64,000 nt of DNA from an uncultured Gammaproteobacteria bacterium (GTDB taxonomy: Bacteria; Patescibacteriota; Microgenomatia; Levybacterales; UBA12049). The stretch lies in the NCBI GenBank assembly GCA_964540055.1, contig CAZILC010000003.1, positions 21,599-85,598 of the forward strand, read 5' to 3'. The notes beneath the pieces were generated by a model that was given only the letters and a program-made list of their open reading frames with translations, ran no database searches and was not told where the DNA came from. Shown here piece after piece: positions 4,549-35,562 of the stretch (within the stretch, counting starts at the first letter, position 1; every line of letters starts with the position of its first letter). Made by a program: the position numbers and the translations under genes.

Positions 4549-4557
4549 ACTATAGGT

Positions 4558-12031: not shown

Positions 12032-12979
12032 ATGACAGAGCTAGCAGAAGTTCCCCAAGAGGCAGCAAATCCACTAGGAAAACCTGATGCAAAGCATCGT
12101 AGAGATGAAAGAATCCCTGCAGGTGAAACATCAATGCGAAAATTTATAGCAAATACTGTTGAAGAGAGTAAAGGTATTCATGAAGCTTTTAAAAAATCAA
12201 AAAAAGAAAATAGAGCGACGCGTTGGCAAAGGATTTTGCATGCTGTGAATATTCCTGCAAGAATTTGGGGAGCCCGATCTGACCTTGCAGGACAAGCTGA
12301 ACAAGGGTCTACTACTCAAGTTCAAAATGCAGAACCTGAACAATCATCCACTACCAGTGTTGATGCTGCAGAACAAAATGTTGAAAATGCGCATAGAAGA
12401 TCTAAGTCAGAGCGATTTAGAAACGCTGCACGAAGAGTAGCTAAATATTTGGTTAGAGATAAAATAGAACAATTACCAGATGGGTATGTTGCCGAAAGTT
12501 TGAATGATGTGGCGGCTATGCGTAAAACAGATGGATATGAATCTGTATATGATGCCGTGCAAAAAGTTTCTAAAGTTGCACTTCCGGTCAGCGCCAATGC
12601 TGAAACACCTGACGGAGCTCTGGGAAAAGAATTTGCTAATGGATTCATGGGGTATTTAAATGTGCCTGGTGATGAAGGTGATGACGGACTCCAATTGGCA
12701 TTTGGAAGAACTGGAGGCAGACATAGCAGTGATAGCTCAGTTGAAATTGTGCAGTTAGACCCTAAGACAGGTGAACCAATTGGTAAACAAAAACTTATGG
12801 TTCTGCCTGATAAAAGCTTGACAGTATTTCCATTTACCGTAAACGGTAAGGAAATCTCGTTATCGGCAAAAATAGACAGGGGTCAACTTGAATTTGCGAC
12901 AAAGGGTGATAAAAAATTACATATTGGAGAGACTGCCCCCAATCTTGTTGAAAATACTAGTGCTGTTCCTGTAGGCTGA
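12032..12979 (+). CDS. Hypothetical soluble protein, Asp/Glu/Arg-rich, with composition atypical for this genome.
   Basis: ORF track only; no recognisable motifs. The 3' end overlaps the next gene convergently by about 23 bp. Confidence 0.4.
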   Translation: MTELAEVPQEAANPLGKPDAKHRRDERIPAGETSMRKFIANTVEESKGIHEAFKKSKKENRATRWQRILHAVNIPARIWGARSDLAGQAEQGSTTQVQNAEPEQSSTTSVDAAEQNVENAHRRSKSERFRNAARRVAKYLVRDKIEQLPDGYVAESLNDVAAMRKTDGYESVYDAVQKVSKVALPVSANAETPDGALGKEFANGFMGYLNVPGDEGDDGLQLAFGRTGGRHSSDSSVEIVQLDPKTGEPIGKQKLMVLPDKSLTVFPFTVNGKEISLSAKIDRGQLEFATKGDKKLHIGETAPNLVENTSAVPVG

Positions 12980-13778
12980 GTGTTAGCCATCTGAAATCAT
13001 GACTAGGATGTCTCATCTCTAAAAAGCCTCTCACATTAGTAGCAGCCAATTCCCACGCCCATCTGCCAGGATCGTCTTCCCCCATTTCTCGATTCGGAAA
13101 AGCAGACGTATAGCGATTTCTCAGACGTTCAATTGCATCCTCATCCCCGGTTTTTTGAGAAAGTACGAGCTTATAGTCATCTGAAATAGCTATTGAATCA
13201 TCAGTTTCCAATGCTTCTTGTGCTGTAGTAAATGCAGTGGTTAGCAAATCGATATGAGGCTTAGCGTGGGGACTCAAAAAGAAATCCTGAATTTCTTCAG
13301 CTTTTTTCATTTGAGGCCTTCTGGGATCTTTCGGGTCGGTACGTACAGAATCTCTATATCTACTTATCGAATCGATGACTGTTGTATGTACTACGTCATG
13401 CCAGAGGACACCTAATCGTCCTTCTTTCATTAGATGTTCGTCATCATGGATAGGTTTTTCTGGTGTATCAACAGCACGTTTCACCTTATACAATCTATGT
13501 TCTCTGTTTGCAGCGGCTCCGACTCGTATCAGTTGTCGATCAGACAGAGGTGATCTAAGCAGTGCCGGCCAGCTTATAGGAGGTTTCTGAAGCAGTGCAG
13601 CTGCAGTATAGATAGCGATTCCTCGCGTCTCCTCAGGCCAGCGCTTATTGCCATCAATAAATCCTTTCACCCACGTATCTTTAATGAGTGGATCACGATC
13701 TGGTGTTAATGTAAATTCTGTAAATGGAAGTCGTCCAGGTTTTTCATTCATGCAACGAATTATACAGGATAGATGCAA
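12957..13778 (-). CDS. Hypothetical protein. The likely start is MNEKPG at about 13751.
   Basis: ORF track only; Arg/Asp-rich; no motifs recognised. Confidence 0.4.
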   Translation of the reverse strand: MHLSCIIRCMNEKPGRLPFTEFTLTPDRDPLIKDTWVKGFIDGNKRWPEETRGIAIYTAAALLQKPPISWPALLRSPLSDRQLIRVGAAANREHRLYKVKRAVDTPEKPIHDDEHLMKEGRLGVLWHDVVHTTVIDSISRYRDSVRTDPKDPRRPQMKKAEEIQDFFLSPHAKPHIDLLTTAFTTAQEALETDDSIAISDDYKLVLSQKTGDEDAIERLRNRYTSAFPNREMGEDDPGRWAWELAATNVRGFLEMRHPSHDFRWLTLSLQEQH

Positions 13779-16143: not shown

Positions 16144-17130
16144 ATGGCTTCAGCAAAAAAACCAGCTAATGCTATAAAATTTATTTTTAATCCTCATGCG
16201 GGAGAAAAACGTAAAAGTATCGGTGGGGGTAACGGTGTCTCTCTTGATGAAATAAAATCTCTGTTACAACAATATCAGCTGCCCGTAGATTATGCACCTA
16301 CAAAAGGTCCAAAGCATGCAACACAGTTGGCAAAGGAAGGTATCTCTGAAGGGTATGAAACAGTAATCGTCGCTGGTGGCGATGGGACAGTAAATGAGGC
16401 TGCAAATGGTTTGGTAGGAAGCGATATAAATCTTGGAATAATCCCTATGGGGACATTTATGAATATTGCTCATATGCTCTCAATTCCACTGGATATTGAA
16501 AAAGCAATTGCAATTATTAAAATTAAACGAATTCGCAAAATTGATGTAGGGCAAGTGACCAAATTGGAAGGTGAAAAATTAACTGATCCTTATTATTTTA
16601 TCGAATCTTCAGGAATTGGTCTTGATGCACATGTACAGGATTATTTTAAAAAAATAGAAAGGGGCGACTTGCAAAATATATTTCCTCTCATTCATAAGTT
16701 TTTTAAATTCAGATCTGGCTTAACTGAAATTGTAACTGATGCAAAAAAAATTACTTGTAAAGCAAGTATTATTAATGTCGCAAATGGTCCTTACGCGGGA
16801 GCAAATTTTAGAATGTCACCTTCTGCAAAGCTAAATGATCACCGTTTGACTGTTTCAATATATTCAATGACACAATGGGAATTGGTAAAATATTTTTTGA
16901 AAATGAAATTGACGCAAAAATCTGATGGACGAAGATTACATACAATAAAAGCAAAAAATGTTAAAATTCAAACCACAACTGAAGATATGTACGTACATGT
17001 GGATGCGAGTTTGTTTGGTTCACCTCCTGTAAATTACAAAATTATTCCAAACGCCTTAAATGTCATTTGTGGTTTTCCCGCATCTTCTGACCCGGTTTCT
17101 ATTTCATCACGAACGACGTTAGATCCTTAA
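16144..17130 (+). CDS. Diacylglycerol/lipid kinase catalytic-domain protein (DAGK_cat, YegS/DgkB-like).
   Basis: FIFNPHAGEKRK...VIVAGGDGTVNEAANGL...GIIPMGTFMNIAHML are the DAGK_cat ATP-binding and GGDG motifs. Confidence 0.8.
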   Translation: MASAKKPANAIKFIFNPHAGEKRKSIGGGNGVSLDEIKSLLQQYQLPVDYAPTKGPKHATQLAKEGISEGYETVIVAGGDGTVNEAANGLVGSDINLGIIPMGTFMNIAHMLSIPLDIEKAIAIIKIKRIRKIDVGQVTKLEGEKLTDPYYFIESSGIGLDAHVQDYFKKIERGDLQNIFPLIHKFFKFRSGLTEIVTDAKKITCKASIINVANGPYAGANFRMSPSAKLNDHRLTVSIYSMTQWELVKYFLKMKLTQKSDGRRLHTIKAKNVKIQTTTEDMYVHVDASLFGSPPVNYKIIPNALNVICGFPASSDPVSISSRTTLDP

Positions 17131-18044
17131 GGAGTAAGTATCGTTAGAGCGCGAGGCAGGATTTCAATCGTTAATTGTTTGGTTGGAGGGAAAATATTTC
17201 CATCACACTCAAATGCTTTTTTCCTACCAATTACTGAAATGACAATCTTTTTCCCTTTTAAAAACGTATAATGAGGACTTTTATTAATATTTCCGGATAC
17301 AGTGTGTCGTAACAAACTAATCCAGTAGTACCAGTTTTTTGCCTGAATAATGCCGATTGAAAGTCTGCCGTTGGTTGCTGAAGTTTGAGGCACAAGATAA
17401 TATCCACCTTGAATTTTGCCTAAATTCGCGGCAAGAATTGTTTTCGCTCTAACTATAATTGGTTTGTTTTCATCTACTTGTAATTTATATATTGTTGATG
17501 AACGGAGTAAACTTCTCAGTGCTGAATACAAATATGCAAGTACACCAATTCTATTTTTTAATTGTCTATTAGCACCCTTTATCATTTCTGCATCAAACCC
17601 GATTCCTGCTAAAATGGCAAAATAAATTGCATTTGCGCGCCCTATATCTATTTTGAGAGGTTTTCCGTGAAGTGCAATTTTCATGCTTTTTGTAGTATCC
17701 AGAGGAATACGTACATTTTGAGCAAATAAATTTCCTGTTCCAAGAGGCACGATTCCGACAGTTATATTTTTATTTACACATGCGCCAACGACTTCCATAA
17801 TTGTTCCATCACCTCCACAAACAATCAAATGAGTAACCCCCTTTTTTATTGCTTGACTTGCTATATCTGTTGCTGTGTTCTGTATTGTGGTAGTTTGCAA
17901 TTCACCATCCCATCCATTTTCCTTTGCAATTGACTGGATGGTTTTTTTTCTGTCTTTCTCATTACCGGGACCACTTACAGGATTAAGAATGATAAGTGGT
18001 GATCGGGCGTTGTGATTTATTTTATTTATCCCCTTTTTTTGCAT
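17127..18044 (-). CDS. Second DAGK_cat lipid kinase, convergent with the first with a 4-bp overlap.
   Basis: LIILNPVSGPGNEKDRK...LIVCGGDGTIMEVVGAC...GIVPLGTGNLFAQN. Confidence 0.8.
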   Translation of the reverse strand: MQKKGINKINHNARSPLIILNPVSGPGNEKDRKKTIQSIAKENGWDGELQTTTIQNTATDIASQAIKKGVTHLIVCGGDGTIMEVVGACVNKNITVGIVPLGTGNLFAQNVRIPLDTTKSMKIALHGKPLKIDIGRANAIYFAILAGIGFDAEMIKGANRQLKNRIGVLAYLYSALRSLLRSSTIYKLQVDENKPIIVRAKTILAANLGKIQGGYYLVPQTSATNGRLSIGIIQAKNWYYWISLLRHTVSGNINKSPHYTFLKGKKIVISVIGRKKAFECDGNIFPPTKQLTIEILPRALTILTP

Positions 18045-19239
18045 AATATTTTCTCCCTTTTAATTTTTCCGGTAAATATGACAAGTTTTTTTCCGGTCCA
18101 ATGTGTCCATTTTTCCAGTTGTAACCTTTTGCATATCCTAATTCTTTCATGAGTTTGGTAGGTGCGTTTCTCAGATGAAGCGGGACAGGTTCATTGGGAA
18201 AATTGATTACATCCTCTCGTGCTTTGGCAAACGCATCAATGGCACTCCTATCTTTTTTTGCACTGGCGAGATAGGTAACTCCATGGGCGAGATTGATTGC
18301 ACATTCAGGATAGCCGATTGTTTCGACTGCGCGAAAAACATCATTTGCTACAACAAGCGCCGTCGGCTGAGCCATCCCAATGTCTTCTGATGCGAAAATT
18401 ACCATTCTACGCGCGATAAATTTTGGATCTTCTCCACCTTCAATCATTCTGGCAAGATAATAAAGAGATGCATCGACATTTGATCCGCGCATGGATTTGA
18501 TAAATGCTGAGATGATGTTGTAATGTTCATCTGCCTTTTTATCGTAAAGGCCTACTGTGCGGGTTTGGAAAATATCTTTTATCGTAACTGGTGTAATTTC
18601 TTTTTCGTTGTATGTTGTTACTGCCATCTCAAGCGCATTTAACATAATCCTCGCGTCTCCTCCGGATAGTCTTAGTAATAATTCCTCAGCTTCCTCATTA
18701 ATTTTTTTCTTGTACTCCCCTACTCCAGTTTTTTTATCAGTTAGGGCTCTTTGAATGATGGTTTGCAAATCCTGTGTTTGTAATCCTTGTAAAACGAAGA
18801 TTCTTGATCGTGATAAAAGCGCGCTAATTATTTCAAAAGAAGGATTTTCTGTGGTTGCACCAATTAAGATAATATTGCCATTTTCGACACTCGGTAAGAG
18901 CGTGTCCTGTTGGGCCTTATTCCATCTATGAATTTCATCGATAAATAGGATTGTTTTTTGTTTGCTTTTTTGTGCCCGTTCAACGATCTCTATCAGATCT
19001 TTTTTCCCGCTCGTTACCCCTGAAAGTGCATGGAAATCTGCGTGTATATTTTTAGCGATAAGATGAGCAAGCGTTGTTTTCCCTGATCCCGGAGGACCCC
19101 AGAAAATCATCGATGTAACTGTTTGATTTGCAATCATTTTTCGGATGATGCCATTTTCTCCTATTAATTGTTCCTGACCGACGTATTCGTCAAGCGTTTG
19201 CGGTCGCATTCTATATGCGAGGTTTGAGGTTCGATTCAT
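18022..19239 (-). CDS. rarA: Replication-associated recombination protein A (AAA+ ATPase RarA/MgsA).
   Basis: MRPQTLDEYVGQE..., Walker A GPPGSGKTTLA, ILFIDEIHRWNKAQQD, the C-terminal MgsA helical domain; 405 aa. Confidence 0.9.
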   Translation of the reverse strand: MNRTSNLAYRMRPQTLDEYVGQEQLIGENGIIRKMIANQTVTSMIFWGPPGSGKTTLAHLIAKNIHADFHALSGVTSGKKDLIEIVERAQKSKQKTILFIDEIHRWNKAQQDTLLPSVENGNIILIGATTENPSFEIISALLSRSRIFVLQGLQTQDLQTIIQRALTDKKTGVGEYKKKINEEAEELLLRLSGGDARIMLNALEMAVTTYNEKEITPVTIKDIFQTRTVGLYDKKADEHYNIISAFIKSMRGSNVDASLYYLARMIEGGEDPKFIARRMVIFASEDIGMAQPTALVVANDVFRAVETIGYPECAINLAHGVTYLASAKKDRSAIDAFAKAREDVINFPNEPVPLHLRNAPTKLMKELGYAKGYNWKNGHIGPEKNLSYLPEKLKGRKYYAKKGDK

Positions 19240-19262
19240 GGGGACATTGTAACATACCCTTA

Positions 19263-19607
19263 TTAAGGTGTTGTTGTGGGTTCTACTGTAACAGTATTTG
19301 TTGTTTCTGGAGTTGCCGTTATTACCACATGGTACACAGTCGGTCCTGCTGTTGGCACATGAGTTATCTCTGGGGGTACGGTTGCACTTTGACCGGCTGT
19401 TGTGGGGATTAGTGTTTCGGTAATTGTAGGATGAGGAGCAGTAATAACGATACTTTTATTTTTATTATTCTGGTTAACAAATACAATTGTTAGGAGGATA
19501 ACTAAGATTACAATTATTATAATAATCCAATGTCTGCCCTTCATTGAGGCTATCTTAACAGTTAGATACAAGAGGTGAATGAAATAGTAGTAAGAAGTAA
19601 GTAGCAA
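19263..19607 (-). CDS. Small membrane-anchored Thr/Pro-rich protein. The likely start is MKGRHW at about 19544.
   Basis: TM segment IIIIVILVILLTIVFV followed by a T/P-rich tail; ORF track. Confidence 0.3.
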   Translation of the reverse strand: MLLTSYYYFIHLLYLTVKIASMKGRHWIIIIIVILVILLTIVFVNQNNKNKSIVITAPHPTITETLIPTTAGQSATVPPEITHVPTAGPTVYHVVITATPETTNTVTVEPTTTP

Positions 19608-19660
19608 GAGCGAAATATTTTGAGGACGTAAGGTAATTTACTGCAGAAATTGGTTTGACT

Positions 19661-20284
19661 CTATTTCCCTCCAAACAGACTGGTAAAGAATGAGATTATA
19701 AGCATAATAAATTGGAGGAACAATTGGAGTAAATTGCCGCCGCCGCCAGTTGTGGGAATTGTGGTAGGAACGGGTTGTTGCGTTGGCTGTGTTGATGTGC
19801 CGGGAGTCTGAGAAATTGTTGGCGTTGGACATCCTGCACCCAGACAGACATTTGTAGGTGCTGGAGTGGCAGGAGTTGGAGTAGCCTCACAGGCAACAGG
19901 TTCACAACCTTTTCCAAGTGTATCCTGATAGCAAACAGCACCGGTTCCGCAATCTGCATTGGTATTACATGACTTGGAACAAATGCCTGAGCCATTAAGT
20001 TGAATATCTGCAGAACAAATGGATGCTTGTAATCCCTGACATTGACCGCCGCCTTGTGTGCAGTATTTGCCAATTCCCTGTTCATTGCCCATATCACCAG
20101 GTGAACCACAGGTTTGTGACTGAGCATGTTGCTGGTAGGTTTGTTTAGTTTGAATTTGAAAAAGTGCCAAATATAAAGCAGCAAGCAAAATACCAAAAAC
20201 GATGAAATATTTTTTGGTGAATTTCGATTGTCCTTTTGATTTGGCAGCCGGTTTGGATGCGGCTTTTTTGAGCTTCTTGGGCAT
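19661..20284 (-). CDS. Secreted or anchored protein with a conserved 9-Cys module and a P/T-rich linker (paralog A).
   Basis: N-terminal Lys-rich region plus TM anchor, then TCGSPGDMGNEQGIGKYCTQGGGQCQGLQASICSADIQLNGSGICSKSCNTNADCGTGAVCYQDTLGKGCEP. This module is near-identical to the one in the next gene. Confidence 0.6.
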   Translation of the reverse strand: MPKKLKKAASKPAAKSKGQSKFTKKYFIVFGILLAALYLALFQIQTKQTYQQHAQSQTCGSPGDMGNEQGIGKYCTQGGGQCQGLQASICSADIQLNGSGICSKSCNTNADCGTGAVCYQDTLGKGCEPVACEATPTPATPAPTNVCLGAGCPTPTISQTPGTSTQPTQQPVPTTIPTTGGGGNLLQLFLQFIMLIISFFTSLFGGK

Positions 20285-20331
20285 AGTCTATCTCAACAGT
20301 AGCAGAGTTTTTTGTCCGTTGTCAATGACTT

Positions 20332-21441
20332 TTATAGGTTTGGATTATTAATTTCTCGGAGGAATAAATTATAATCAGTTTGATCTACTTTACCATCATC
20401 GTTAAGATCGGAGGCTTGTATTTGTTCCGCGTTGCATGATTTATTTTGTCTTAATAGACTAATACACTGAATAATTTTGTTGTAATCCAATGTGTTTACT
20501 GCGTCATCATTATTTACATCACCTGCAATGAGTGATGCTGGATCGACAATTGTCTGTTGTCCAATGATCACGGGTACACTGTCTAGTGTCGCGGTGATAA
20601 AGCTTGAGGTTTTAATAGTTACCGTATAGTTTCCGGTTACCAAAATATTCCCTAAATCCGCGGTTCCTGTAAAGGCACCCTTGGCAGGATCATAACTAAA
20701 TTCCTTATTTTGTGTGATAAGTGGAAGATTTTGCGTTCCTACAACTGAAATGGTAAAGGTTCGCTTGGTATGCAGTGGAGATTTATTACTTAAGGTACTT
20801 AGCTGGGTGCGATTATCTCCACTATTTCCAATTCCATGCAGGAAAATTTTGAAAATGAGAACCGATGAATTCGGTTTTGCTGTCGGCACAGGAGTTTGCG
20901 TTGGATATACAGTAGGAATAGGCTTGTACGTTGGTGTGGGGGTGGGTTTGCTGGTTGGTTTGGCTGTGGGTTTTGGAGTTGTTGTGGGTTGAAGTTTGAT
21001 AGTCGGTTGTGGTTGTGCTGTGGGTTTTGGAGTCGCAGTTGGCTGCTCTGTTGTACAAACATCAGGTTTACATCCTTTTCCGAGTGCATCTTGATAACAA
21101 GTTGCGCCTGTTCCACAATCCGCGTCTGTATTACACGATTTGGAACAAATACCATGTCCGTTTAGTTGAATATCAGCAGAACAAATCGGCGAACTTGTAC
21201 CGAGACACTGTCCCCCACCCTGCGTGCAATATTTCCCGACTCCCATGGCATTTCCTTGATCACCCGGAACGCCACAAGTTGCGGATTGTGCGTGTTGCAT
21301 AATGCTTTGTCTTTGCTGCGTCTGCAAAACGGTGAACGACAAGGTAACTAAAAGAAAGAGTGAGATCAAAAGCGTCACATATTTTGAGTGCTTTTTAGTT
21401 CTTTTTTTAGATATTGGACGGGATAGAATTTTTCTCGGCAT
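20332..21441 (-). CDS. Paralog B: the same 9-Cys module, a P/T/K-rich linker, a beta-rich middle domain and a C-terminal type I dockerin.
   Basis: TCGVPGDQGNAMGVGKYCTQGGGQCLGTSSPICSADIQLNGHGICSKSCNTDADCGTGATCYQDALGKGCKP. The C-terminal GDVNNDDAVNTLDYNKII and SDLNDDGKVDQTDYNLFL are the two Ca-binding dockerin repeats. Confidence 0.65.
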   Translation of the reverse strand: MPRKILSRPISKKRTKKHSKYVTLLISLFLLVTLSFTVLQTQQRQSIMQHAQSATCGVPGDQGNAMGVGKYCTQGGGQCLGTSSPICSADIQLNGHGICSKSCNTDADCGTGATCYQDALGKGCKPDVCTTEQPTATPKPTAQPQPTIKLQPTTTPKPTAKPTSKPTPTPTYKPIPTVYPTQTPVPTAKPNSSVLIFKIFLHGIGNSGDNRTQLSTLSNKSPLHTKRTFTISVVGTQNLPLITQNKEFSYDPAKGAFTGTADLGNILVTGNYTVTIKTSSFITATLDSVPVIIGQQTIVDPASLIAGDVNNDDAVNTLDYNKIIQCISLLRQNKSCNAEQIQASDLNDDGKVDQTDYNLFLREINNPNL

Positions 21442-21480
21442 AACGACAAGAATATCTCGAGCGTAACAAATTGATTGAGC

Positions 21481-22734
21481 TTATGTCAATGAAGCAGGAT
21501 GTTTATTTTTCAAATTTTTTTCAATTGCCGCATAGGCGAATAATAAAAAGAATTGTGTACATGCGATGATAACAGGCGCAAATCTCAATGCAAATGTATT
21601 AGTGGTAAGATGCAAAATTAATAAAAAAAGTAAAATACCTACTACTCTGCCTCCATTGAGATAAATTTCCTGATCACATACATAAGCATAATGCTGATTT
21701 TGGTCTTTGTTGTCATTGTCTATTAAATCGTAATTTACTGAACTTCCACCTACCCAAATAAATTGCTGTGATAAGGCTTGAGCTGCGAAGAAAATGAGTA
21801 CTCCAAGGGCTGAATAAAGGAGGCCAAATATGAATGTACCAAGAATAGCAAAAAGAATACCAATAAAAATAAGTTGCAATCTATGGCTTGTATTTAATGA
21901 TTTTCCCACCCAATAAATAAGTAAGCTTGCTATGACGGCAGAAATTGATTGGACGATTCCTAGAGTTGCTTCATTCCCGATTAATATAAGCACAACCAGA
22001 ATCGGAATAAAATAGGTTACCGAGTTGAGGAGGCCAAAAATAAATTGTATCCATCGGAATATAGTCCAGTTCTTATTACTATTTTTTACCAATAAAGGAG
22101 GTTTGCTAGATTGTCCCGCAGTGATTGATTTACTTATGGTACCAATCCACAAAATCACCCCGATCATATATGCGACCAACAACTTGTATCCTTGCAATGG
22201 TGTGTAAAGATGAATAATGGTGCCAAAGGTAATAAATAACCCTATGAGTGCGGGGATGATAACTGAAGTAATTGTACCTGAGGCGCTTTCAATACTTGAG
22301 AAATAAATTCTGTCATGTGTTGAGGTAGTTTTCAGGGTTAACAGATTACGATTAGCCCAATAAACTCCCGCAAACAATCCATCAACAAGACTAAATATGA
22401 TAACCGCAGGAAGCGTTATTGTGGGAAGAAACATCAGAAATAGAATAGCAATTCCGTCAACAAGTAACGAAACTGTGTACGGTATCGCAGGTGCATATTT
22501 ACGCAACAAGTAGCCATTTACATAAAACCCTAGGGGGATAACGGCATACAAAATAAGATTGTAGATTGATATGGTAACGATATCGTGCGTTTGTCTCCAG
22601 AGAAAGGCGTCAATAAAAACGCTAAATAGTGGTCCGATAAAGTTATAAAGAAAAATTGTCTTTATGAGTTTTTGTGCATCTGAGTGGAGTTGGTGAAAAT
22701 ATGATTTTTCTTTCCCAATGAATTCTTTAATCAC
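21481..22734 (-). CDS. Polytopic membrane transporter, MFS-like, about 12 TM.
   Basis: 417 aa with about 12 hydrophobic helices in two halves; no other diagnostic motif. Confidence 0.5.
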   Translation of the reverse strand: MIKEFIGKEKSYFHQLHSDAQKLIKTIFLYNFIGPLFSVFIDAFLWRQTHDIVTISIYNLILYAVIPLGFYVNGYLLRKYAPAIPYTVSLLVDGIAILFLMFLPTITLPAVIIFSLVDGLFAGVYWANRNLLTLKTTSTHDRIYFSSIESASGTITSVIIPALIGLFITFGTIIHLYTPLQGYKLLVAYMIGVILWIGTISKSITAGQSSKPPLLVKNSNKNWTIFRWIQFIFGLLNSVTYFIPILVVLILIGNEATLGIVQSISAVIASLLIYWVGKSLNTSHRLQLIFIGILFAILGTFIFGLLYSALGVLIFFAAQALSQQFIWVGGSSVNYDLIDNDNKDQNQHYAYVCDQEIYLNGGRVVGILLFLLILHLTTNTFALRFAPVIIACTQFFLLFAYAAIEKNLKNKHPASLT

Positions 22735-22751
22735 TTGTTTATTTTATCAGA

Positions 22752-23465
22752 TTAAAGGCTGAGTAGTGTATTTTCTATGGCAAAACGAGGGTTCACATTG
22801 GTAGTTTTGAGAAGCGTGTGGAGGGATTGGAGATGTATAAGAGCATCACGGGTATCACGAGTGTCATAAGCTTCATTTATAGATTCAATCAGATTTTTTC
22901 GTAAAATAACAATCATGTTTTCGATCCATTTGAGGGCTTTTTCTTTGTCTTTGGCCAGTTGTTCTGCTTGTTTGAGTCTGGCGCCAATGGAGAGATCTGG
23001 CAGTGATTGTACGAAAAAATTGAGCTCCGTGATTGTTTCCTGTTTCAGTTCTTTTTTCTCTTCTTCCAAAATAATAATCTGGCAGCGTGAGAGAATTGTC
23101 GGGAGCAAATCATCCTGACTTTCTGTACCGAGCATAATATGTGTATGAGCCGGAGGTTCTTCTAGTATTTTAAGAAGCGCGTTTTGTGCCTCTGGTGTGA
23201 GTAATTGTGCATCCTCAATGATAACCAGTTTGTATTCACTTTTTATAGGTTTGAGGAATACTTTTTTGTGGATTTGTTTGACTGTCTCAATGCCGATGCT
23301 TTGTGCTTTTGTTTCATCTTTTTCAAGAATAGTAATATCAAACGCATCTATTTGGTGCTTCGTAGCGTGCTCTTTTTCAAAAGCCTCTCTCTTCTTTTTC
23401 TCTTTTGCAACAACAATAAAACTTACCATATATGAAAGATGGTTTTCATAATACAAAAGTCCCAA
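22752..23465 (-). CDS. holB: DNA polymerase III delta-prime (HolB)-like clamp-loader subunit. It is short and lacks an N-terminal P-loop region.
   Basis: KLVIIEDAQLLTPEAQNALLKILEEPPAHTHIMLGTESQDDLLPTILSRCQII is the clamp-loader box VII / SRC motif. Confidence 0.6.
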   Translation of the reverse strand: MGLLYYENHLSYMVSFIVVAKEKKKREAFEKEHATKHQIDAFDITILEKDETKAQSIGIETVKQIHKKVFLKPIKSEYKLVIIEDAQLLTPEAQNALLKILEEPPAHTHIMLGTESQDDLLPTILSRCQIIILEEEKKELKQETITELNFFVQSLPDLSIGARLKQAEQLAKDKEKALKWIENMIVILRKNLIESINEAYDTRDTRDALIHLQSLHTLLKTTNVNPRFAIENTLLSL

Positions 23466-24338: not shown

Positions 24339-26078
24339 ATGCCCGGTTTAAATTCCGCTCCATCTGTTATGCAAGATCAGTCCAGTCTTTCTCTTCTGGA
24401 TATGCTTCTTGCAGATCATCTACTCACCGATCAACAATATCAGCAAGTAAAATTAAAAAGCGATGAAGGTGGTCAATCGACAGTCGATGTCCTCAAATCC
24501 ATGCATATCATTCCCGATTCCAAAATCGCGGAAGCACAGGCAAAAATCATTGGTGTTCCCTATATTTCTCTGGGGACAGTTTCATTTTCTCCTCAGGCGT
24601 TGAGTTTTCTCTCCCGATCAGTCGTCGAACGGTTTTCGCTGATTCCCTTCGCCTATGATGATGGCACCAAGACACTTTCAATAGCCATGGCCAATCCAGT
24701 TGATCTTGATGCACTTGCTTTTGTCCGTCAGAAAACCGGCCTCATAATCAAATCATTCGCAGCTGATCCTGCAGAGGTACTCGGAGCAATTGATCAGCAA
24801 TATCAGCAGTCAATTGTTGGTGAAGTTGGTGAAGCTATTAAAGAGACTGAAGAATTTTCTGATAATAAGACAGTTGATAAAGAAAAAATCGCGCAAATTA
24901 TTCATGATGCGCCAATTGCCAAAATCGTATCGACAATTCTTGAATATGCTGTTAATAGTAGATCATCAGATGTGCATATTGAACCGCTCAATGATAAGTT
25001 GCGTGTCCGATACAGAATTGATGGTATTTTGTATGATAAATTGAGTCTTCCCAAAAATGTCCGCGATTCACTAACGTCCCGTATCAAGATTTTGGCTGAA
25101 CTTAAAATTGATGAACATAGGATTCCTCAGGATGGACGGTTTAATTTCAAAATTGATAAGCAGGAAGTTGATATTCGTGTCTCAATTATCCCGACAGTTC
25201 GGGGCGAAAAAATTGCTTTGCGTCTTCTGTACAAATCCGGTGGGATACCATCGCTTACTGATTTGGGAATGGGCGGAACAGCACTCAAGTCACTCGAGAC
25301 GGCAGTTCTTAGACCGCATGGGATCATTCTTGTTTGCGGACCGACCGGATCGGGAAAAACTACAACGCTTTATTCGGTACTTTCCCGTTTGAATACCACG
25401 CGGGTAAATATTTCTTCATTGGAAGATCCGGTCGAATATGAAATGCCCGGAATTAATCAGGTTCAAATTAATGCAGGAGTAGGATTAACGTTTGCATCCG
25501 GATTGCGGGCATTTTTGCGTCAGGATCCAAATATCATCCTTGTTGGTGAAATTCGTGATAAAGAGACAACCGATCTGGCAATTCAGGCCGCTCTTACCGG
25601 CCATTTGGTGTTTTCAACGCTTCATACGTCCCGCGCAGCCGGAGCACTTCCACGTTTGATTGATTTGGGTTCTGAAAGTTTTCTTCTTGCATCAACAGTC
25701 AACGCGATAGTTGGTCAAAGAATAGTGCGTAAAATCTGTCCGCATTGCAAAGAATCATATATACCACCTCCTCAATTAATGGATGAAGTTAAACGAGTTC
25801 TTATTACACTCTTCCCAACATCAGGTGATGGCAAATTTTATCGCGGGAAAGGGTGTCAGGAGTGCGGTGGTCTTGGTTATTTAGGAAGAATGGGGATTTA
25901 TGAAGTGTTGGTATCGTCAGAAAAAATTGCGAGACTTATGGTCGAGGGAAAGGACGAGCAAAAAATTGAAGATCAGGCAATTGCTGAGGGAATGATCACG
26001 ATGAAACAAGATGGCTACTTGAAAGTTTTGAAAGGAGATACTACTATGGAAGAGGTGCTCCGAGTAGCGCAAGAATAG
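24339..26078 (+). CDS. pilB: Type IV pilus assembly ATPase PilB (GspE family).
   Basis: N-terminal GspII_E_N-like domain, Walker A GPTGSGKTTTLYS, the His box STLHTS and the tetracysteine CPHC...CQEC. Confidence 0.92.
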   Translation: MPGLNSAPSVMQDQSSLSLLDMLLADHLLTDQQYQQVKLKSDEGGQSTVDVLKSMHIIPDSKIAEAQAKIIGVPYISLGTVSFSPQALSFLSRSVVERFSLIPFAYDDGTKTLSIAMANPVDLDALAFVRQKTGLIIKSFAADPAEVLGAIDQQYQQSIVGEVGEAIKETEEFSDNKTVDKEKIAQIIHDAPIAKIVSTILEYAVNSRSSDVHIEPLNDKLRVRYRIDGILYDKLSLPKNVRDSLTSRIKILAELKIDEHRIPQDGRFNFKIDKQEVDIRVSIIPTVRGEKIALRLLYKSGGIPSLTDLGMGGTALKSLETAVLRPHGIILVCGPTGSGKTTTLYSVLSRLNTTRVNISSLEDPVEYEMPGINQVQINAGVGLTFASGLRAFLRQDPNIILVGEIRDKETTDLAIQAALTGHLVFSTLHTSRAAGALPRLIDLGSESFLLASTVNAIVGQRIVRKICPHCKESYIPPPQLMDEVKRVLITLFPTSGDGKFYRGKGCQECGGLGYLGRMGIYEVLVSSEKIARLMVEGKDEQKIEDQAIAEGMITMKQDGYLKVLKGDTTMEEVLRVAQE

Positions 26079-26080
26079 TT

Positions 26081-27148
26081 ATGGACATTCAAGAACTGTT
26101 ATCACTGACAATTAAAAATAAAGCATCGGATTTGCATTTGATGGTTGGCTTGCCTCCGACCTTTCGTATTGACGGCGCTCTTCGGTATCTGACAACGTAT
26201 CCTGCTCTTAAGACCGCAGATCTTGAGGCAATGATATTTTCGATTCTTACTCCCGAACAGAAAGAGTTACTGCTTACCAATAAAGAGCTTGATTTTTCAT
26301 TCGGATTCCGTGGAAAAGGTGCGACCGAGAATGGCCGGTTTCGTATTAATGCCTATTTTGAAAAAGGAACTGTTGCAGCGGCTTTGCGTTTTCTTGCACC
26401 GGGGGTTAGAACTGTTGAGGAATTAAGCCTTCCTAATGTCGTTCATGATTTTGCCAAACTCAAACAAGGATTCGTTCTTGTCACCGGTCCAACCGGTCAT
26501 GGCAAATCGAGTACGCTTGCTGCTCTGATTAATGAAATCAATTTAAATAAATCATGTCATATCCTAACTATTGAGGATCCGATTGAGTATGTGTATCCCA
26601 AAGGCAACAGCATTATCTCCCAGCGTGAAATGAGTATTGATACGCATTCATGGTCTATGGCACTTCGTTCTTCCCTTCGTGAAGATCCGGATGTTGTTCT
26701 TATCGGTGAAATGCGTGATCCTGAGACAATGCAGGCAGCAATTACCCTTGCAGAGACCGGCCATCTAGTACTTTCAACATTGCATACTAATTCTGCATCC
26801 CAAAGTATTGATCGTATTGTCGATGCGTTTTCGGCCGATCAACGGTCACAGATCCGCATACAGCTTGCCGCAACGCTTAAGGGTATTATCTCGCAACGTT
26901 TAGTTACCAAAATTGGCGGTGGTCGAATTCCGGCAGTTGAAGTATTACTCGGAACACCTGCTGTTGCAAGTAATATCCGGGATGGAAAATCACATCTGAT
27001 AGACTCGGTTATTCAAACCTCAAAAGACATGGGCATGATAACAATAGATGAATCTTTGGCAAATCTTGTTAAAGAAGGTATTATAACGATCGATGATGCC
27101 AGATCCTATGCTCTACGCATAAATGAACTTGAGAGACTGGTTGGATAA
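26081..27148 (+). CDS. pilT: Twitching-motility retraction ATPase PilT.
   Basis: GPTGHGKSSTLAALIN, TIEDPIEY, LSTLHTNSA, 355 aa; 2 bp downstream of pilB. Confidence 0.92.
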   Translation: MDIQELLSLTIKNKASDLHLMVGLPPTFRIDGALRYLTTYPALKTADLEAMIFSILTPEQKELLLTNKELDFSFGFRGKGATENGRFRINAYFEKGTVAAALRFLAPGVRTVEELSLPNVVHDFAKLKQGFVLVTGPTGHGKSSTLAALINEINLNKSCHILTIEDPIEYVYPKGNSIISQREMSIDTHSWSMALRSSLREDPDVVLIGEMRDPETMQAAITLAETGHLVLSTLHTNSASQSIDRIVDAFSADQRSQIRIQLAATLKGIISQRLVTKIGGGRIPAVEVLLGTPAVASNIRDGKSHLIDSVIQTSKDMGMITIDESLANLVKEGIITIDDARSYALRINELERLVG

Positions 27149-27262: not shown

Positions 27263-28468
27263 ATGAGACTTTATTACCGAGCGGTAACGCAAGATGGAAA
27301 AACGGTTCGTGGCTTAATTGAAGCGAAAGATGTGAGCGAAGCTGCACTCTATCTTCGACAACATCAATTTATTCCTGTTCAAATAATTGCCGAAAACAAA
27401 GCCGGTTTGACAAGATATTTATCGCTCCTCCATCGGACCAAAGCCTCAGATATTGTCTTTTTTACTCGCCAGCTGGCATCAATGATTACCTCAGGACTGA
27501 CGCTTCTGCAAGCGCTAAATGTCTTAAAAAATCAGGTCCAAAATGCAGCTTTGTCTGAAATGATTCAAGGTATTATTACTGATATTGAAGATGGAGCAAT
27601 GCTTTCAAAGGCTCTTGAAAAATATCCATCTGCATTTTCCCCGATCTATGTTGCCCTAGTCAAAACGGCAGAAGCATCAGGTCTTTTGGATAAAGTACTC
27701 ACAAGGCTTGCTGAGAATCTGGAAAAAAAGGAACAGCTAATTCGTACAATTCGAGGGGCGTTATTATATCCGATCATTGTTGTAGTCATGATGGTACTTG
27801 TCATGGTGGTTATGATGATTTATGTCGTGCCGCAATTAACTGTTCTGTATGGTAATTTGAACATGAGTCTCCCCTTACCGACTGTTATTGTCATTGCAAT
27901 GTCAAACTTTTTGACTCATTACTGGTATATCGCAATAACGTTATTTGTAATCATTTCGGTTTATCTTAAAAGCTGGCATAATAAACCATCAGGTAAAAAA
28001 ACAACCGATGCGTATGTTCTCAAGTTGCCGATTTTTGGACAATTGATTCGGGACAGTATGATGGCTGAATTCGCCAGGACGTTATCTCTTTTGATTAGTT
28101 CAGGCTCACTCGTTGTCGAATCTTTGGTAAAAAGCAGTGATGTGGTGGGAAATGTAATTTATAAAGACGCGATTGGTCTGGTCGCCAAACGGGTTGAGAA
28201 AGGCATTTCGATTGGAGATGCAATGGCTGCTTCTCCTCTATTTCCCCCGATGGTTGTTGAAATGGTGAAAATCGGTGAACAAACCGGAAAATTGGATAGT
28301 TCACTTCTTAAAGCTTCTGAATATTATGAACGTGAGGTTGAAGAAAAGGTAAAGACCATGACGACACTGATGGAGCCAATAATTATGGTTCTTCTGGCTT
28401 TAGGTGTGGGATTTTTAATTATTGCCATCATTACACCGATTTATAACCTTATTTCAAATATTAGTTAG
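27263..28468 (+). CDS. pilC: Type IV pilus inner-membrane platform protein PilC (GspF family).
   Basis: Two GspF repeats and 3 TM segments, 401 aa. Confidence 0.9.
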   Translation: MRLYYRAVTQDGKTVRGLIEAKDVSEAALYLRQHQFIPVQIIAENKAGLTRYLSLLHRTKASDIVFFTRQLASMITSGLTLLQALNVLKNQVQNAALSEMIQGIITDIEDGAMLSKALEKYPSAFSPIYVALVKTAEASGLLDKVLTRLAENLEKKEQLIRTIRGALLYPIIVVVMMVLVMVVMMIYVVPQLTVLYGNLNMSLPLPTVIVIAMSNFLTHYWYIAITLFVIISVYLKSWHNKPSGKKTTDAYVLKLPIFGQLIRDSMMAEFARTLSLLISSGSLVVESLVKSSDVVGNVIYKDAIGLVAKRVEKGISIGDAMAASPLFPPMVVEMVKIGEQTGKLDSSLLKASEYYEREVEEKVKTMTTLMEPIIMVLLALGVGFLIIAIITPIYNLISNIS

Positions 28469-30050: not shown

Positions 30051-31001
30051 TTAAAAATTAATCGGTCCCACGTGTGGAAAGCCCGGCGGACGATCTGGGT
30101 TGAGGGCACCTTTGGCTATACTTTCTCTGATCGCGATTGCTCGTGCATGCTTTTCAACCTGGTTTAAGCCCTCTTGTGTGACCACACGGGACTTATTTCT
30201 TGACAACCGTGCATACATCACGTCTCTTATTCGAGTAACTCTGTCTACCATCGCATCGCTTAAAAAATCCTCTTTTCGCATAAAGACAGAGACGTCATAA
30301 TCGGTAACACCAGGAACTTTATATGTTTCATCAAGCATTTGTTGGATTGCTTGAGGATCGGATACGAGCTCTTTCTCACCTGTGTTCAGTAATGTCTCCC
30401 CCCCGTACGGATGAAAGCCAAGTCTATTTACGGCAAATTTTGCGAGCGTCGGGTTTGTTGTTCCTTCAATAAGCTCCGGCATTTCTTTCACGCGGCTCCT
30501 TTTTCTATATCCTTTTATTGTTCGTATCAGATCGACACTGCCTAAAAACATTGCTTCTTGGGCATGTTCATCCTGTTTTGTACTTACTGCGAATGGCTCG
30601 AAATGTAAATCGATAAATTTATCACCCTTTTTAAGATCTACTGCATAGCTCGGGTCTTTGATATCGCTAACACGATCATTTTTGCCGGTGACATACATGC
30701 TCAGGTTCACTGCGCCGACTGTTCCAAAGGTTGCAAGTTTGTGCATTTTTCTCAGTCGGTCTAAATCAAGGGTAGATAAGACAGAATAGAGACCTTCCGG
30801 ATCATCTTTATTAACACCAAGTGAATCAAGCTCTCGCCTGAGTGTTCTTCGATTAAGTGCTAGTTGAATTTCTTTACGAATCCCGCTTTGTACCTTCAAC
30901 CTCGGCACCTCTGCCTCCGTTTTAACAACAACTTCCCCTTCTGACATCCCGGCACCTTCCACCATACTTTTTAGTGTAATAGGTTTGGAGGCATTTAACA
31001 A
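30051..31001 (-). CDS. Hypothetical protein, 316 aa.
   Basis: ORF track; Arg/Asp/Glu-rich; no motifs recognised. Confidence 0.45.
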   Translation of the reverse strand: MLNASKPITLKSMVEGAGMSEGEVVVKTEAEVPRLKVQSGIRKEIQLALNRRTLRRELDSLGVNKDDPEGLYSVLSTLDLDRLRKMHKLATFGTVGAVNLSMYVTGKNDRVSDIKDPSYAVDLKKGDKFIDLHFEPFAVSTKQDEHAQEAMFLGSVDLIRTIKGYRKRSRVKEMPELIEGTTNPTLAKFAVNRLGFHPYGGETLLNTGEKELVSDPQAIQQMLDETYKVPGVTDYDVSVFMRKEDFLSDAMVDRVTRIRDVMYARLSRNKSRVVTQEGLNQVEKHARAIAIRESIAKGALNPDRPPGFPHVGPINF

Positions 31002-31041
31002 TCTGTGGAGTGGTTTACAGTTCCAACTAAGTACCTGTTAA

Positions 31042-31070
31042 CCACAAAAAAGCTCCCGTTCGGGAGCTCT
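31042..31070 (-). terminator. Rho-independent terminator downstream of the cold-shock gene.
   Basis: Perfect hairpin GAGCTCCCG-TTCG-CGGGAGCTC at 31051-31069, followed on the minus strand by TTTTTTGTGG. Confidence 0.6.
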
Positions 31071-31089
31071 TTGTAGACACGGAAATGTC

Positions 31090-31287
31090 TTATTCCCGTG
31101 TAATGTTTTTGGCACTTGGGCCACGATCTCCGTTGACTACTTCAAAAGTGACGGTGTCACCGGTTTGTAGTTCATCAAAGGTTACACCTTTTAAATCATT
31201 AGCATGAAAAAAGAGGTCTTTTGATTCGCCTTCTCGGCTGATGAATCCAAACCCTTTATCCATTTTAGTTTTAATAGTTCCTTTCAT
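31090..31287 (-). CDS. cspA: Cold-shock protein (CspA family, cold-shock domain).
   Basis: KGTIKTKMDKGFGFISREG...DLFFHANDL are the RNP1/RNP2 motifs; 65 aa. Confidence 0.92.
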   Translation of the reverse strand: MKGTIKTKMDKGFGFISREGESKDLFFHANDLKGVTFDELQTGDTVTFEVVNGDRGPSAKNITRE

Positions 31288-35544: not shown

Positions 35545-35562
35545 AGTCGCTTGTAAAAATGA

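Follow-up and report, generated by a model that had tools for sequence, protein, structure and literature searches.

A ten-cysteine domain family in an adjacent gene pair from a probable Patescibacteria bacterium, with a putative X-module–dockerin display architecture

A previously unannotated family of ten-cysteine domains was identified through two adjacent paralogous genes in a 64-kb stretch of DNA (hereafter, the window) from a probable Patescibacteria (CPR) bacterium. The domain is real and selected, and each of the two encoded proteins would present one copy of it at the cell surface. We put at about an even chance an account in which the proteins form an exported surface pair with a non-catalytic binding head, anchored either by an X-module–dockerin (XDoc)–cohesin interaction or by a C-terminal helix. 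Little is known of how Patescibacteria attach to and recognize other cells, and the majority of surface proteins in this group lack annotation. The family defined here is compact, strongly conserved, and confidently foldable, and it remains nameless in databases despite comprising ~270 clusters at 50% identity. No current view is overturned, and the function of the module is one that we infer.

A cysteine-rich module outside described families

The spacing of Cys residues is identical in the two module copies (positions 2, 18, 25, 33, 45, 49, 55, 61, 70, and 75) and falls within the motif GN-x-x-GVGKYC ... CSKxC-x-TDADCG-x-GA-x-C ... GC-x-P-x-x-C. The initial annotation had counted nine Cys per module, its pattern ending at GCxP and omitting the Cys of CxPxxC; the correct number is ten, which would probably form five disulfides. 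Nucleotide identity between the copies, formerly put at ~75%, was measured at 70% over the 228-nt module, with 76% identity at the amino-acid level.

A word-indexed protein search using a single module as the query retrieved only two truncated relatives; the family emerged from an exhaustive profile search with HMMER. This search yielded 267 clusters (50% identity) under a threshold of E ≤ 1e-3, with 35 reaching E ≤ 1e-10, and all 267 are unnamed or labeled "hypothetical". Across the family, the ten Cys together with N, G, GVG, and DCG motifs are invariant or nearly so; no His or Met is conserved in the module. Neither Pfam nor NCBIfam nor the PDB, queried by sequence and by fold, gave a positive result, which upholds the earlier placement of the module outside described families. 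When the two paralogs and a third small ORF were scanned against Pfam and NCBIfam at E ≤ 10, the dockerin alone passed, the remainder being subthreshold noise (SelK, GRP, WAP, DX, Dickkopf_N, CarbpepA_inh, and Myxo_Cys_RPT). A literature search found no description of the module, nor of bacterial PHM-like enzymes bearing it.

Family loci, located by a genome scan with a narrower alignment (A4), reside on low-GC Patescibacteria-type contigs and in high-GC Myxococcota, predatory bacteria in which the domain is widespread. Look-ups by exact sequence with the window protein, P0001, and P0002 turned up no contigs. Larger proteins contain tandem arrays of 2 to 8 copies (P0003, P0005, and P0011), and other module partners include CBM_4_9 (P0021), Metallophos, and XDoc. 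A division of long-type and short-type modules into two ancient clades was considered and rejected, as a small neighbor-joining tree (no support values) grouped the modules by lineage instead.

Anatomy of the gene pair and candidate anchoring modes

Paralogy of the long and short proteins is evident by BLASTP (51% identity over 192 residues, E 7e-57), and the general plan first proposed for the pair is borne out: each has a Lys/Arg-rich start, a hydrophobic segment of ~19–21 residues, and directly thereafter a single module, with P/T-rich linkers visible on sequence inspection in both (Table 1). Synonymous divergence of the two paralogs has reached saturation (pS 0.75), and their modules differ with a pN of 0.15; pN spans 0.10–0.15 for the module and 0.26–0.35 for whole proteins, with pS saturated. 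The combination of saturated pS and low module pN indicates that the duplication is old, as had been suggested, and that the pair has been kept by purifying selection.

Table 1. Features of the gene pair and its flank, in window coordinates
Feature	Position	Strand	Basis
Long paralog, 369 aa	20332-21441	(-)	ORF, paralogy, and orthologs of matching architecture
Candidate N-terminal export segment, aa 1-54 of long paralog	21280-21441	(-)	Lys/Arg n-region, hydrophobic YVTLLISLFLLVTLSFTVL, Gln-rich to AQS before module
Cys module copy 1, aa 55-130 of long paralog	21052-21279	(-)	Local module HMM E 1.7e-26
P/T/K-rich linker, ~60 aa	20872-21051	(-)	Sequence
X-module-like beta-sandwich, aa 191-305, motif LHGIGNSGD...	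20527-20871	(-)	AF2 and Foldseek
Dockerin, aa 306-364	20350-20526	(-)	Pfam PF00404 E 4.9e-10, 39.9 bits vs cut-off 22.9
Dockerin F-hand Ca-binding repeat GDVNNDDAVNTLDYNKII	20470-20523	(-)	
Dockerin F-hand Ca-binding repeat SDLNDDGKVDQTDYNLFL	20359-20412	(-)	
Short paralog, 207 aa	19661-20284	(-)	ORF and relatives of matching architecture
Cys module copy 2, aa 58-133 of short paralog	19886-20113	(-)	Local module HMM E 4.6e-28
Short paralog C-terminal tail GGGGNLLQLFLQFIMLIISFFTSLFGGK, aa 180-207	19664-19747	(-)	Gly run and Leu/Phe-rich helix
Third small ORF, 93 aa from ATG 19544 (114 aa from TTG 19607)	19263-19544	(-)	Gene status uncertain

The long-then-short gene order is kept in four independent sources (the window, L001, L017, and L020), with L020 being syntenic (long gene 3172-4242, short gene 4288-4902). 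Besides these L020 genes, the long-type architecture is repeated in orthologs P0008, P0014, P0017, and P0022, and the short-type architecture in P0012, P0015, P0023, and P0024. The 64-kb window itself contains two Cys modules and one dockerin cassette and no more. Scans of the window for tRNAs and Rfam families gave no matches, and promoter/terminator counts across 19000-22900 were not above those of shuffles.

Both proteins look exported, as originally claimed: they start with a signal or anchor segment, have an even number of Cys, and contain P/T linkers, and the long one ends in a dockerin; the signal peptides of Myxococcota homologs also appear lipoprotein-like by eye. The N-terminal segment of the long paralog, whose hydrophobic region (19 residues) is TM-like, could be a Sec signal that is cleaved off or could stay in place as a signal anchor. 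An A-x-[S/T/A] sequence recurs 1–3 residues ahead of the first Cys in low-GC (Patescibacteria-type) relatives. In the proposed mechanism, Sec export would be followed by probable cleavage after the conserved A-Q-S/T motif, placing the head of the long protein at the distal end of its 60-residue P/T stalk. The earlier positioning of the module at a stalk end needs exactly this event, as the module adjoins the hydrophobic segment. If left uncleaved, the segment would hold the module against the bacterium's own membrane, and the stalk would project the dockerin instead.

An AF2 model of residues 190-369 of the long paralog (pLDDT 91.4, pTM 0.87) packs a beta-sandwich against the dockerin; the beta-sandwich (aa 191-305) accounts for the beta-rich domain noted earlier. 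Foldseek comparison of this region with the PDB returned X-module plus type II dockerin chains as all of the top 8 matches, with both domains covered (3kcp_A, 5g5d_B, 2b59_B, 4wi0_B, 4fl4, and 4u3s_B; E 7e-7 to 1.3e-5, probability 1.00, 170–181 columns). The dockerin assignment of the initial annotation is confirmed by its PF00404 score (39.9 bits), but the label "canonical type I" was imprecise given the resemblance of the dyad to X-module plus type II dockerin. Duplicated Ca-binding loop–helix segments (DVNNDDAVNTLD and DLNDDGKVDQTD) are present in this dockerin, which scores above the PF00404 cut-off, and the linker between the repeats contains a Cys pair (C326/C336) that is near-invariant in the cassette family. 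To our knowledge, clostridial dockerins do not feature a Cys pair in this linker. On the basis of the model, the beta domain and dockerin are best described as an X-module–dockerin dyad. Similar low-GC contigs reuse this dyad as a cassette, which was found in 23 homologs, either alone or behind other heads, including a Peptidase_S8 fragment and CHRD.

Like the clostridial XDoc (C. thermocellum CipA with SdbA/ScaC cohesins; 2b59, 5g5d, 3kcp, and 4fl4), the cassette comprises an Ig-like beta domain and a two-F-hand dockerin in C-terminal position, ends a modular extracellular protein, and occurs in a contig that encodes an anchored cohesin. The long paralog differs in its low identity to these proteins (16–18%, with TM-scores of 0.55–0.64), in its probable Patescibacteria host without cellulosome context, and in its cargo, where a small Cys-rich head takes the place of a scaffoldin.

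The anchored cohesin was encountered in L019, a low-GC cassette-bearing contig (PF00963, E 2e-9, 38.2 bits vs cut-off 24.1). This protein displays a hydrophobic N-terminal anchor, is encoded ~5 kb from the cassette, and adjoins the gene of another cassette protein, in which the cassette follows a weakly cohesin-like domain. Pfam scans detected no cohesin among the ~33 window proteins, and phmmer, queried with the cohesins of L019, matched no window ORF and nothing in L001–L014. The L019 cohesin makes the cohesin partner advanced in the initial annotation plausible: the C-terminal X-module and dockerin of the long paralog would dock into a cohesin that is anchored in the membrane and whose gene lies in another part of the genome, thereby holding the protein at the surface. 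Together, the cassette and the anchored cohesin, present in at least one cassette contig, point to a small non-cellulosomal display system.

Alternatively, the dockerin may be an orphan, acting as a Ca-dependent stabilizing or carbohydrate/cell-wall-binding unit in a long protein that operates outside any cohesin scaffold. Non-cellulosomal dockerins are reportedly common in genomes that lack cohesins. The cohesin-free window and L001–L014 are in keeping with such a role, as is the discussion of a Patescibacteria dockerin protein as possibly glycan-targeting (PMC10633639). We consider this reading unlikely, though worth keeping in view, since the cassette resembles XDoc in particular, and such dyads are known to bind cohesins, and since a bona fide anchored cohesin lies near a cassette in L019.

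Under the display account, the short protein would carry the same head on a shorter stalk and be anchored directly. Its domain order is signal/anchor, module, P/T linker with a CLGAGCP mini-loop (contributing an extra Cys pair, C147/C152), Gly run, and C-terminal hydrophobic/amphipathic helix. The tail reads ...IPTTGGGG, 21 hydrophobic residues, and GGK, reaching a hydropathy maximum of 2.28 over 17 residues. LPXTG is absent from this tail, and the NCBIfam model EF0750_LPXTG gives E 0.12 (12.8 bits vs cut-off 47). The Gly run and Leu/Phe-rich helix are terminal in P0012, P0015, P0023, P0024, and the L020 short gene; the helix is internal in P0013, P0018, and P0021, which argues against a pure sorting signal. 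The tail is likely a membrane anchor or an oligomerization helix, and the initial description of one copy as free on a stalk gives way to a likely second anchor.

Neither this tail nor the third small ORF figured in the earlier description. The ORF encodes a hydrophobic segment and a tail rich in T and P, and lacks the module. The syntenic contig L020 does not have it, and there an MgsA-like gene directly follows the short paralog.

Myxococcota relatives and the role of the module

In high-GC Myxococcota-type loci, the module is associated with a PHM-like copper monooxygenase, a class of enzymes of which apparently little is known in bacteria. The PHM-like domain is fused to the module in L003 and L004 and is encoded directly beside the module gene in L006 and L010–L014, often with overlapping stop and start codons; only L005 lacks the enzyme among the high-GC loci with a full-length module. 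The module forms a C-terminal appendage of a PHM-like monooxygenase in 17 (Pfam) to 22 (local HMM) of 150 representatives. These uncharacterized module-linked enzymes conserve every PHM copper ligand (HH, H, HxH, and M) without exception, and their profile matches rat PHM (E 1.3e-17). Most family members are small probable lipoproteins that adjoin an enzyme gene. Stand-alone Myxococcota module proteins were also considered as glycine-extended PHM substrates, a possibility rejected because their C-termini are not conserved and have no terminal Gly.

Tandem arrays, appendage to an enzyme, and combination with CBM_4_9 are architectures typical of binding modules, and a binding role, whether in adhesion or toward a ligand, may be supposed for the ten-Cys domain. 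As a non-catalytic ligand-binding head, it could engage a cell-envelope component of a host or prey. The family resembles CBMs and other targeting modules in its C-terminal attachment to enzymes, tandem arrays, P/T linkers, and combinations with dockerin and CBM_4_9. Unlike CBMs, the module displays no sequence or fold kinship to any CBM family and no apparent conserved platform of exposed aromatic residues, and its lack of likeness to characterized binding domains in general counts against a binding head.

The tight coupling in Myxococcota could signify a role more specific than generic binding. The module might serve extracellular PHM-like copper monooxygenases as a dedicated partner, with a substrate-capturing, copper-handling, or regulatory function, in which case the Patescibacteria copies would have been co-opted or would serve the enzyme of another cell. 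The near-universal fusion or adjacency in high-GC loci, with copper ligands intact, favors this proposal. Nonetheless, we judge it improbable: Cu2_monoox (PHM/DBH-like) was not detected in the window or in low-GC loci L001, L002, L017, L020, and L023, His and Met are not conserved in the module, and an even, fully conserved set of ten Cys is typical of disulfides. Furthermore, the stand-alone forms do not resemble classical PHM substrates, and the module also keeps unrelated partners (XDoc, CBM_4_9, Metallophos, and tandem arrays of itself).

A broader scheme, to which we likewise give little credence, would have the module recognize an envelope polymer or peptide, Myxococcota oxidize the same target, and Patescibacteria use the co-opted module as a host-recognition head on the cohesin–XDoc display. 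If true, this scheme would imply an unseen type of adhesion apparatus as well as a new substrate class for bacterial extracellular copper monooxygenases.

Fold of the module and its resemblance to knottins

The module was modeled by AF2 with high confidence (pLDDT 93.8, pTM 0.83). Foldseek against the PDB and BFVD retrieved nothing at E ≤ 1e-3 and no whole-domain PDB match, and no significant PDB match came from sequence searches that used profiles A1 and A3. Below significance, module residues 45-75 superpose on knottins and squash trypsin inhibitors with rmsd values of 1.1–2.9 Å, and local knottin-like superpositions reach 1.1–1.6 Å over 26–29 columns (E 0.3–1). In the model, the C-terminal third of the module (28 residues) looks knottin-like at these subsignificant scores, and the N-terminal two-thirds is without a known counterpart. 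The knottin- or toxin-like folds suggested at the outset for comparison are accordingly represented only by subsignificant C-terminal matches that assign no known family; of the disulfide-knotted module envisaged earlier, the C-terminal third retains some likeness, at subthreshold scores, and no knottin matches the whole domain.

The likeness resides in the final six Cys (C-x3-C-x5-C-x5-C-x8-C-x4-C, FCTKPC-x-TD-x-DCG-x-GA-x-C...GC-x-P), which superpose on knottin and related mini-proteins, namely the potato carboxypeptidase inhibitor (4cpa_I and 1h20), spider and scorpion ICK toxins (8f2f and 4fz0), and a Dickkopf/colipase-type Cys-rich domain (3s8v). In a PDB profile search, they align, again below significance, with the carboxypeptidase inhibitor motif ICNKPCKTHDDCSGAWFC. 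The differences are that the matches have E 0.27–1 and cover ~35% of the module, that nothing corresponds to its N-terminal 44 residues, which include four Cys and the invariant GN-x-x-GVG-K-Y-C loop, and that the module sits inside large tethered proteins whereas knottins are free peptides.

This likeness raises the prospect of a knottin-type protease or carboxypeptidase inhibitor that guards the surface or blocks host or prey enzymes. The potato and tomato metallocarboxypeptidase inhibitors are the best PDB sequence matches (E 0.27–0.47, module positions 40-72), and the Pfam profile CarbpepA_inh matches the short paralog with E 0.31 and a single member of the family with 8.6e-4. Such a function is nevertheless very improbable: PF02977 reaches 11.3 bits against a cut-off of 25, all of the matches fall below significance and span one-third of the module, a tenth Cys bound into the fold stands where the carboxypeptidase inhibitor has its inhibitory C-terminal tail, and tandem arrays and enzyme fusions are unusual among inhibitors. 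Also very improbable is a head that acts as a toxin or antimicrobial (ICK or defensin-like) on host or prey membranes or channels, with a membrane-active amphipathic helix added in the short paralog. Scorpion and spider ICK toxins are among the top Foldseek and HMMER matches, a helix rich in Leu and Phe closes the short paralog, and the located members derive from Patescibacteria-type and Myxococcota contigs, groups with host- or prey-associated lifestyles, but the matches are not significant, the proteins are not released but tethered via dockerin or anchor helix, neither an immunity gene nor a link to a secretion system was observed, and most family members are the enzyme-adjacent probable lipoproteins described above.

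A shorter resemblance concerns TIGR04201 (Myxo_Cys_RPT; 15.2 bits vs cut-off 25, aa 102-118 only) and Dickkopf_N (PF04706; 7.6 bits vs cut-off 25 for the short paralog, with E ≤ 1e-3 in just 4 of 150 family members). Although the module scores under both cut-offs and the likeness spans only 17–26 residues, it shares with TIGR04201 and bacterial Dickkopf_N the signature C-x3-[DN]-x-DC-x-x-G-x-x-C, an extracellular location, and abundance in Myxococcota.

A gene pair sharing a ten-cysteine module

An MFS transporter gene on one side and an MgsA-type AAA+ gene on the other flank three co-directional minus-strand ORFs (table). Two of them encode paralogs, here termed long and short, with 51% protein identity (E 7e-57). 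The initial annotation assigned both a common module of nine identically spaced Cys; the shared module and its spacing stand, but the count is ten (positions 2, 18, 25, 33, 45, 49, 55, 61, 70, and 75), as the earlier pattern ended before the last Cys. The reported Lys-rich N-terminus with a hydrophobic segment was seen in both sequences: a Lys/Arg-rich stretch leads into a hydrophobic segment of ~19–21 residues, and a Gln-rich stretch with A-Q-S at its end connects this segment to the Cys module. Scanned with HMMs, the full set of window ORFs contains two modules, one dockerin cassette, and nothing further of either kind.

The two modules share 76% protein and 70% nucleotide identity, the latter below the roughly 75% first estimated. 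Synonymous sites between the paralogs are saturated (pS ~0.75), and pN is 0.15 inside the module versus 0.35 over all aligned codons, with a like contrast against the orthologs on contig L020 (module pN 0.10–0.13). The duplication is therefore old, as originally proposed, and purifying selection acts strongly on the module. The order of long gene, short spacer, and short gene was found in three sources besides the window: a Patescibacteria MAG (L001; 372 aa, then 225 aa), contig L017 (a 360-aa ortholog, then the start of the short paralog after an identical 47-bp gap), and L020, where synteny with the window extends through the MgsA gene. A small NJ tree clusters the modules by lineage and not by long/short architecture, which is weak evidence compatible with possible repeated duplication or concerted evolution.

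Short paralogs have in common two features absent from the initial annotation: a CLG-x-x-CP mini-loop and, at the C-terminus, a Gly-run that leads into a Leu/Phe-rich helix. Because this helix is internal in the family members P0013, P0018, and P0021, it may mediate association as an amphipathic helix and not act purely as a membrane anchor. The third ORF, which separates the short paralog from the MgsA-like gene, encodes a hydrophobic segment and a T/P-rich tail (19263–19544). It is missing from L020, where 27 bp separate its neighbors, so it is lineage-specific or a non-gene; it might encode a stalk-only protein confined to this lineage, be a gene remnant, or not be a gene at all.

Coordinates of features in the window (lengths of the three co-directional ORFs from the ORF listing)
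Feature	Position	Strand	Remark
971-aa protein	1633–4548	-	no Pfam domain, internal repeats
Two convergent overlapping genes	16144–17130, 17127–18044	+, -	GGDGT motif
MgsA-type AAA+ gene	18022–19239		flanks the three ORFs
Small third ORF	19263–19607	-	likeliest start ATG 19544 (93 aa)
Short paralog	19661–20284	-	207 aa
Long paralog	20332–21441	-	369 aa
MFS transporter gene	21481–22734		flanks the three ORFs on the other side
PilB-like ATPase	24339–26078	+	
PilT-like ATPase	26081–27148	+	
PilC	27263–28468	+	
SBP_bac_3 / dCache-HAMP kinase, unit 1	34630–35544 / 35563–37464	+	
SBP_bac_3 / dCache-HAMP kinase, unit 2	37545–38534 / 38553–40433	+	
Prepilin peptidase	40448–41287	+	
Several short ORFs	41331–43851	+	pilin-like N-termini by eye
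PilM	44761–45798	+	

A Cys-rich domain family and a copper monooxygenase

The module matches nothing above threshold in Pfam or NCBIfam, in agreement with the original failure to place it in a known family, and a Pfam scan of 150 listed members found no family covering the module itself. A word-indexed protein search returned two relatives, both truncated. When 1.84 billion cluster representatives were searched exhaustively with an HMMER profile, 267 proteins matched at E ≤ 1e-3 (of these, 35 at E ≤ 1e-10 and 8 at E ≤ 1e-30), and a profile search of a 5.8-billion-protein collection gave at least 250 matches at E ≤ 1e-5. Among the matches listed from the latter, all lack a Pfam domain and are named "hypothetical protein" at source; the few with a named organism come from Labilithrix, Polyangiaceae, and Myxococcota. 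Re-alignment of 160 domain instances revealed eight invariant Cys and two conserved at 93–94%, an invariant or near-invariant G-N-x-x-G-V-G-x-x-C loop, and the further conserved motifs D-C-G-x-x-A-x-C and a terminal C-x-P-x-x-C. A genome scan located the module at two loci in Patescibacteria MAG JBBTVD01 and at seven further loci in Deltaproteobacteria or Myxococcales MAGs. Window-like loci have a GC content of 37–42% (window, 39%) and Myxococcota-type loci 67–70%; "low-GC, Patescibacteria-type" denotes resemblance to the window, the actual Patescibacteria label being carried by L001 and L002 only. The module represents a Cys-rich extracellular domain family that is new and lacks annotation; the modular surface proteins that use it are of known kinds, and the family and its proteins are not a categorically new system.

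Partner domains detected by Pfam in the 150 listed members are Cu2_monoox_C (17), Dockerin_1 (4), and, once each, CBM_4_9, Metallophos, Band_7, and MopE. Two large probable lipoproteins, P0005 (1004 aa) and P0003 (L015 5001–7733), carry eight module copies with acidic linkers between them. In P0005, copies flank a calcineurin-like metallophosphoesterase, which one copy interrupts; the gene for P0003 sits between those for FGE-sulfatase/Lcl_C proteins on a contig of 54% GC.

Stand-alone Myxococcota module proteins are ~115–150 aa long, with N-terminal signal peptides that are lipoprotein-like by eye. At L006 and L010–L014, the module gene adjoins, often with overlapping stop/start codons, a gene for a 310–330-aa enzyme matched by Cu2_monoox_C or a local profile; at L003 and L004, the module is fused to this enzyme, which resembles peptidylglycine alpha-hydroxylating monooxygenase (PHM). 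Among the long Myxococcota-type contigs examined, the enzyme is missing only from L005. Nine divergent fusions invariantly retain all six copper ligands (HH, H, HxH, and (E)M(C)), and the fusion profile aligns with the rat PHM core (E 1.3e-17) and dopamine beta-hydroxylase (E 2.9e-11) across both copper sites. Fusion and adjacency tie the module strongly to a putative extracellular dicopper monooxygenase; a literature search found no description of bacterial PHM-like enzymes of this kind. The same association lends some support to the module being a monooxygenase-specific partner; no dicopper monooxygenase occurs near the low-GC module copies. On L011 and L012, a trypsin-like protease gene adjoins the monooxygenase/module pair, and near the protein's C-terminus is a partial Cys-module match (L011 6758–6916 and L012 2375–2533, both minus strand; E 7e-5).

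An AlphaFold2 model of the module from a 92-sequence alignment is confident (pLDDT 93.8, pTM 0.83) and comprises four short strands plus two helices of one turn each. Foldseek found no PDB match at E ≤ 1e-3, and BFVD returned none. Resemblance to knottins and ICK proteins is confined to residues 45–75 and sub-threshold throughout: the best Foldseek alignments are to ICK toxins and Dickkopf Cys-rich domains (E 0.3–1, 1.1–1.6 Å), and a PDB profile search matched potato carboxypeptidase inhibitor (E 0.27–0.47). This stretch gives some support to a knottin-type inhibitor and, through the ICK toxins, to a toxin head.

An XDoc-like cassette and its possible cohesin partners

The dockerin proposed for the long paralog is confirmed by Pfam above threshold (E 4.9e-10), and structural comparison refines the preceding beta-rich domain. 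A search with residues 190–369 retrieved 23 homologs reusing this cassette, in which an LHGIG-x-x-GD motif precedes the beta domain and two F-hands, with DYNLFLRE at the end. Some proteins carry the cassette alone after a hydrophobic N-terminal segment; in others it comes after a Peptidase_S8 fragment or CHRD. With its AlphaFold2 model (pLDDT 91.4, pTM 0.87), the top eight Foldseek hits in the PDB were X-module plus type II dockerin chains (E 7e-7 to 1.3e-5; including 3kcp_A, 5g5d_B, 2b59_B, 4wi0_B, 4fl4, and 4u3s_B), at probability 1.00 and with 170–181 columns aligned across both sub-domains. The beta-rich domain and dockerin are thus predicted to form an XDoc-like cassette. In cellulosomes, scaffoldins are held by anchoring cohesins on the cell surface through the XDoc dyad. 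C326 and C336, in the inter-repeat linker (residues 325–343; 20413–20469, minus strand), are nearly invariant in the 24-member cassette family, which points to a clasp-like disulfide inside the dockerin; to our knowledge, clostridial dockerins lack such a Cys pair.

That the dockerin is an orphan has some support, as no cohesin was found among ~33 window proteins searched with Pfam or in the window by phmmer. The search of relatives yielded further module copies and, on L019, a contig with a cassette homolog, a 198-aa protein with a hydrophobic N-terminal segment and a cohesin domain (PF00963, E 2e-9, 38.2 bits, cutoff 24.1), so candidate cohesin partners exist where the cassette is found. In the adjacent 384-aa protein, a domain with weak similarity to cohesin (pairwise E 3e-4) follows a hydrophobic N-terminal segment and precedes a P/T linker and the cassette. 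L019 3040–4918 (plus strand) looks like a minimal non-cellulosomal cohesin–dockerin set from an uncultured low-GC bacterium; VWA/SdrD_B surface proteins are encoded upstream. A cultivated member of the Patescibacteria has dockerin-domain proteins; for one of them, which is essential, host glycans have been suggested as the target (PMC10633639).

Proposed display of the module, and neighboring genes

Across lineages, the module serves as a terminal appendage of enzymes, in tandem arrays of 2–8 copies, as probable lipoproteins that consist of little else and are encoded next to an enzyme, and as the head of P/T-stalked surface proteins with an XDoc, CBM_4_9, or hydrophobic tail. Non-catalytic modules for binding or targeting are used in this way, and we therefore favor, at about even odds, a ligand-binding head that would be presented in two ways: on a long form tethered through cohesin and on a short form with an anchor of its own. 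Four rival readings, namely a monooxygenase-specific partner, a knottin-type inhibitor, a toxin head, and an orphan dockerin, are less probable, although each has some support. The initial interpretation, a surface-displayed ligand-binding or adhesion module with one stalked and one cohesin-recruited copy, holds in part; it is refined by the XDoc-like dyad that includes the dockerin, by the second, C-terminal helix of the short paralog, and by the breadth of a family that in Myxococcota is tied to PHM-like enzymes. The outward-facing end would be set by whether the N-terminal segment is cleaved. Past the hydrophobic segment, an A-x-[S/T/A] motif recurs even in P0018, whose module is far downstream, so cleavage appears favored; an uncleaved anchor is possible, given the 19-residue hydrophobic core.

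A type IV pilus cluster (24339–46352, plus strand) begins ~3 kb from the gene pair, with no evident functional tie to it. A two-gene unit of SBP_bac_3 solute-binding protein and dCache-HAMP histidine kinase is duplicated in tandem (34630–40433). Internal repeats in the 971-aa protein follow the pattern '...RP.PW..I....L..FL.R...LPPLS.W....F...F..L....L.GL..HF'. A 484-aa protein just upstream of the long/short pair on L020 (1602–3056, minus strand) looks similar by eye, and several Pfam-less, apparently cytoplasmic ORFs at 12032–13778, 30051–34568, and 54740–55726 look like it in composition. The two convergent overlapping genes look by eye like diacylglycerol/lipid kinases of the YegS/LCB5 type.
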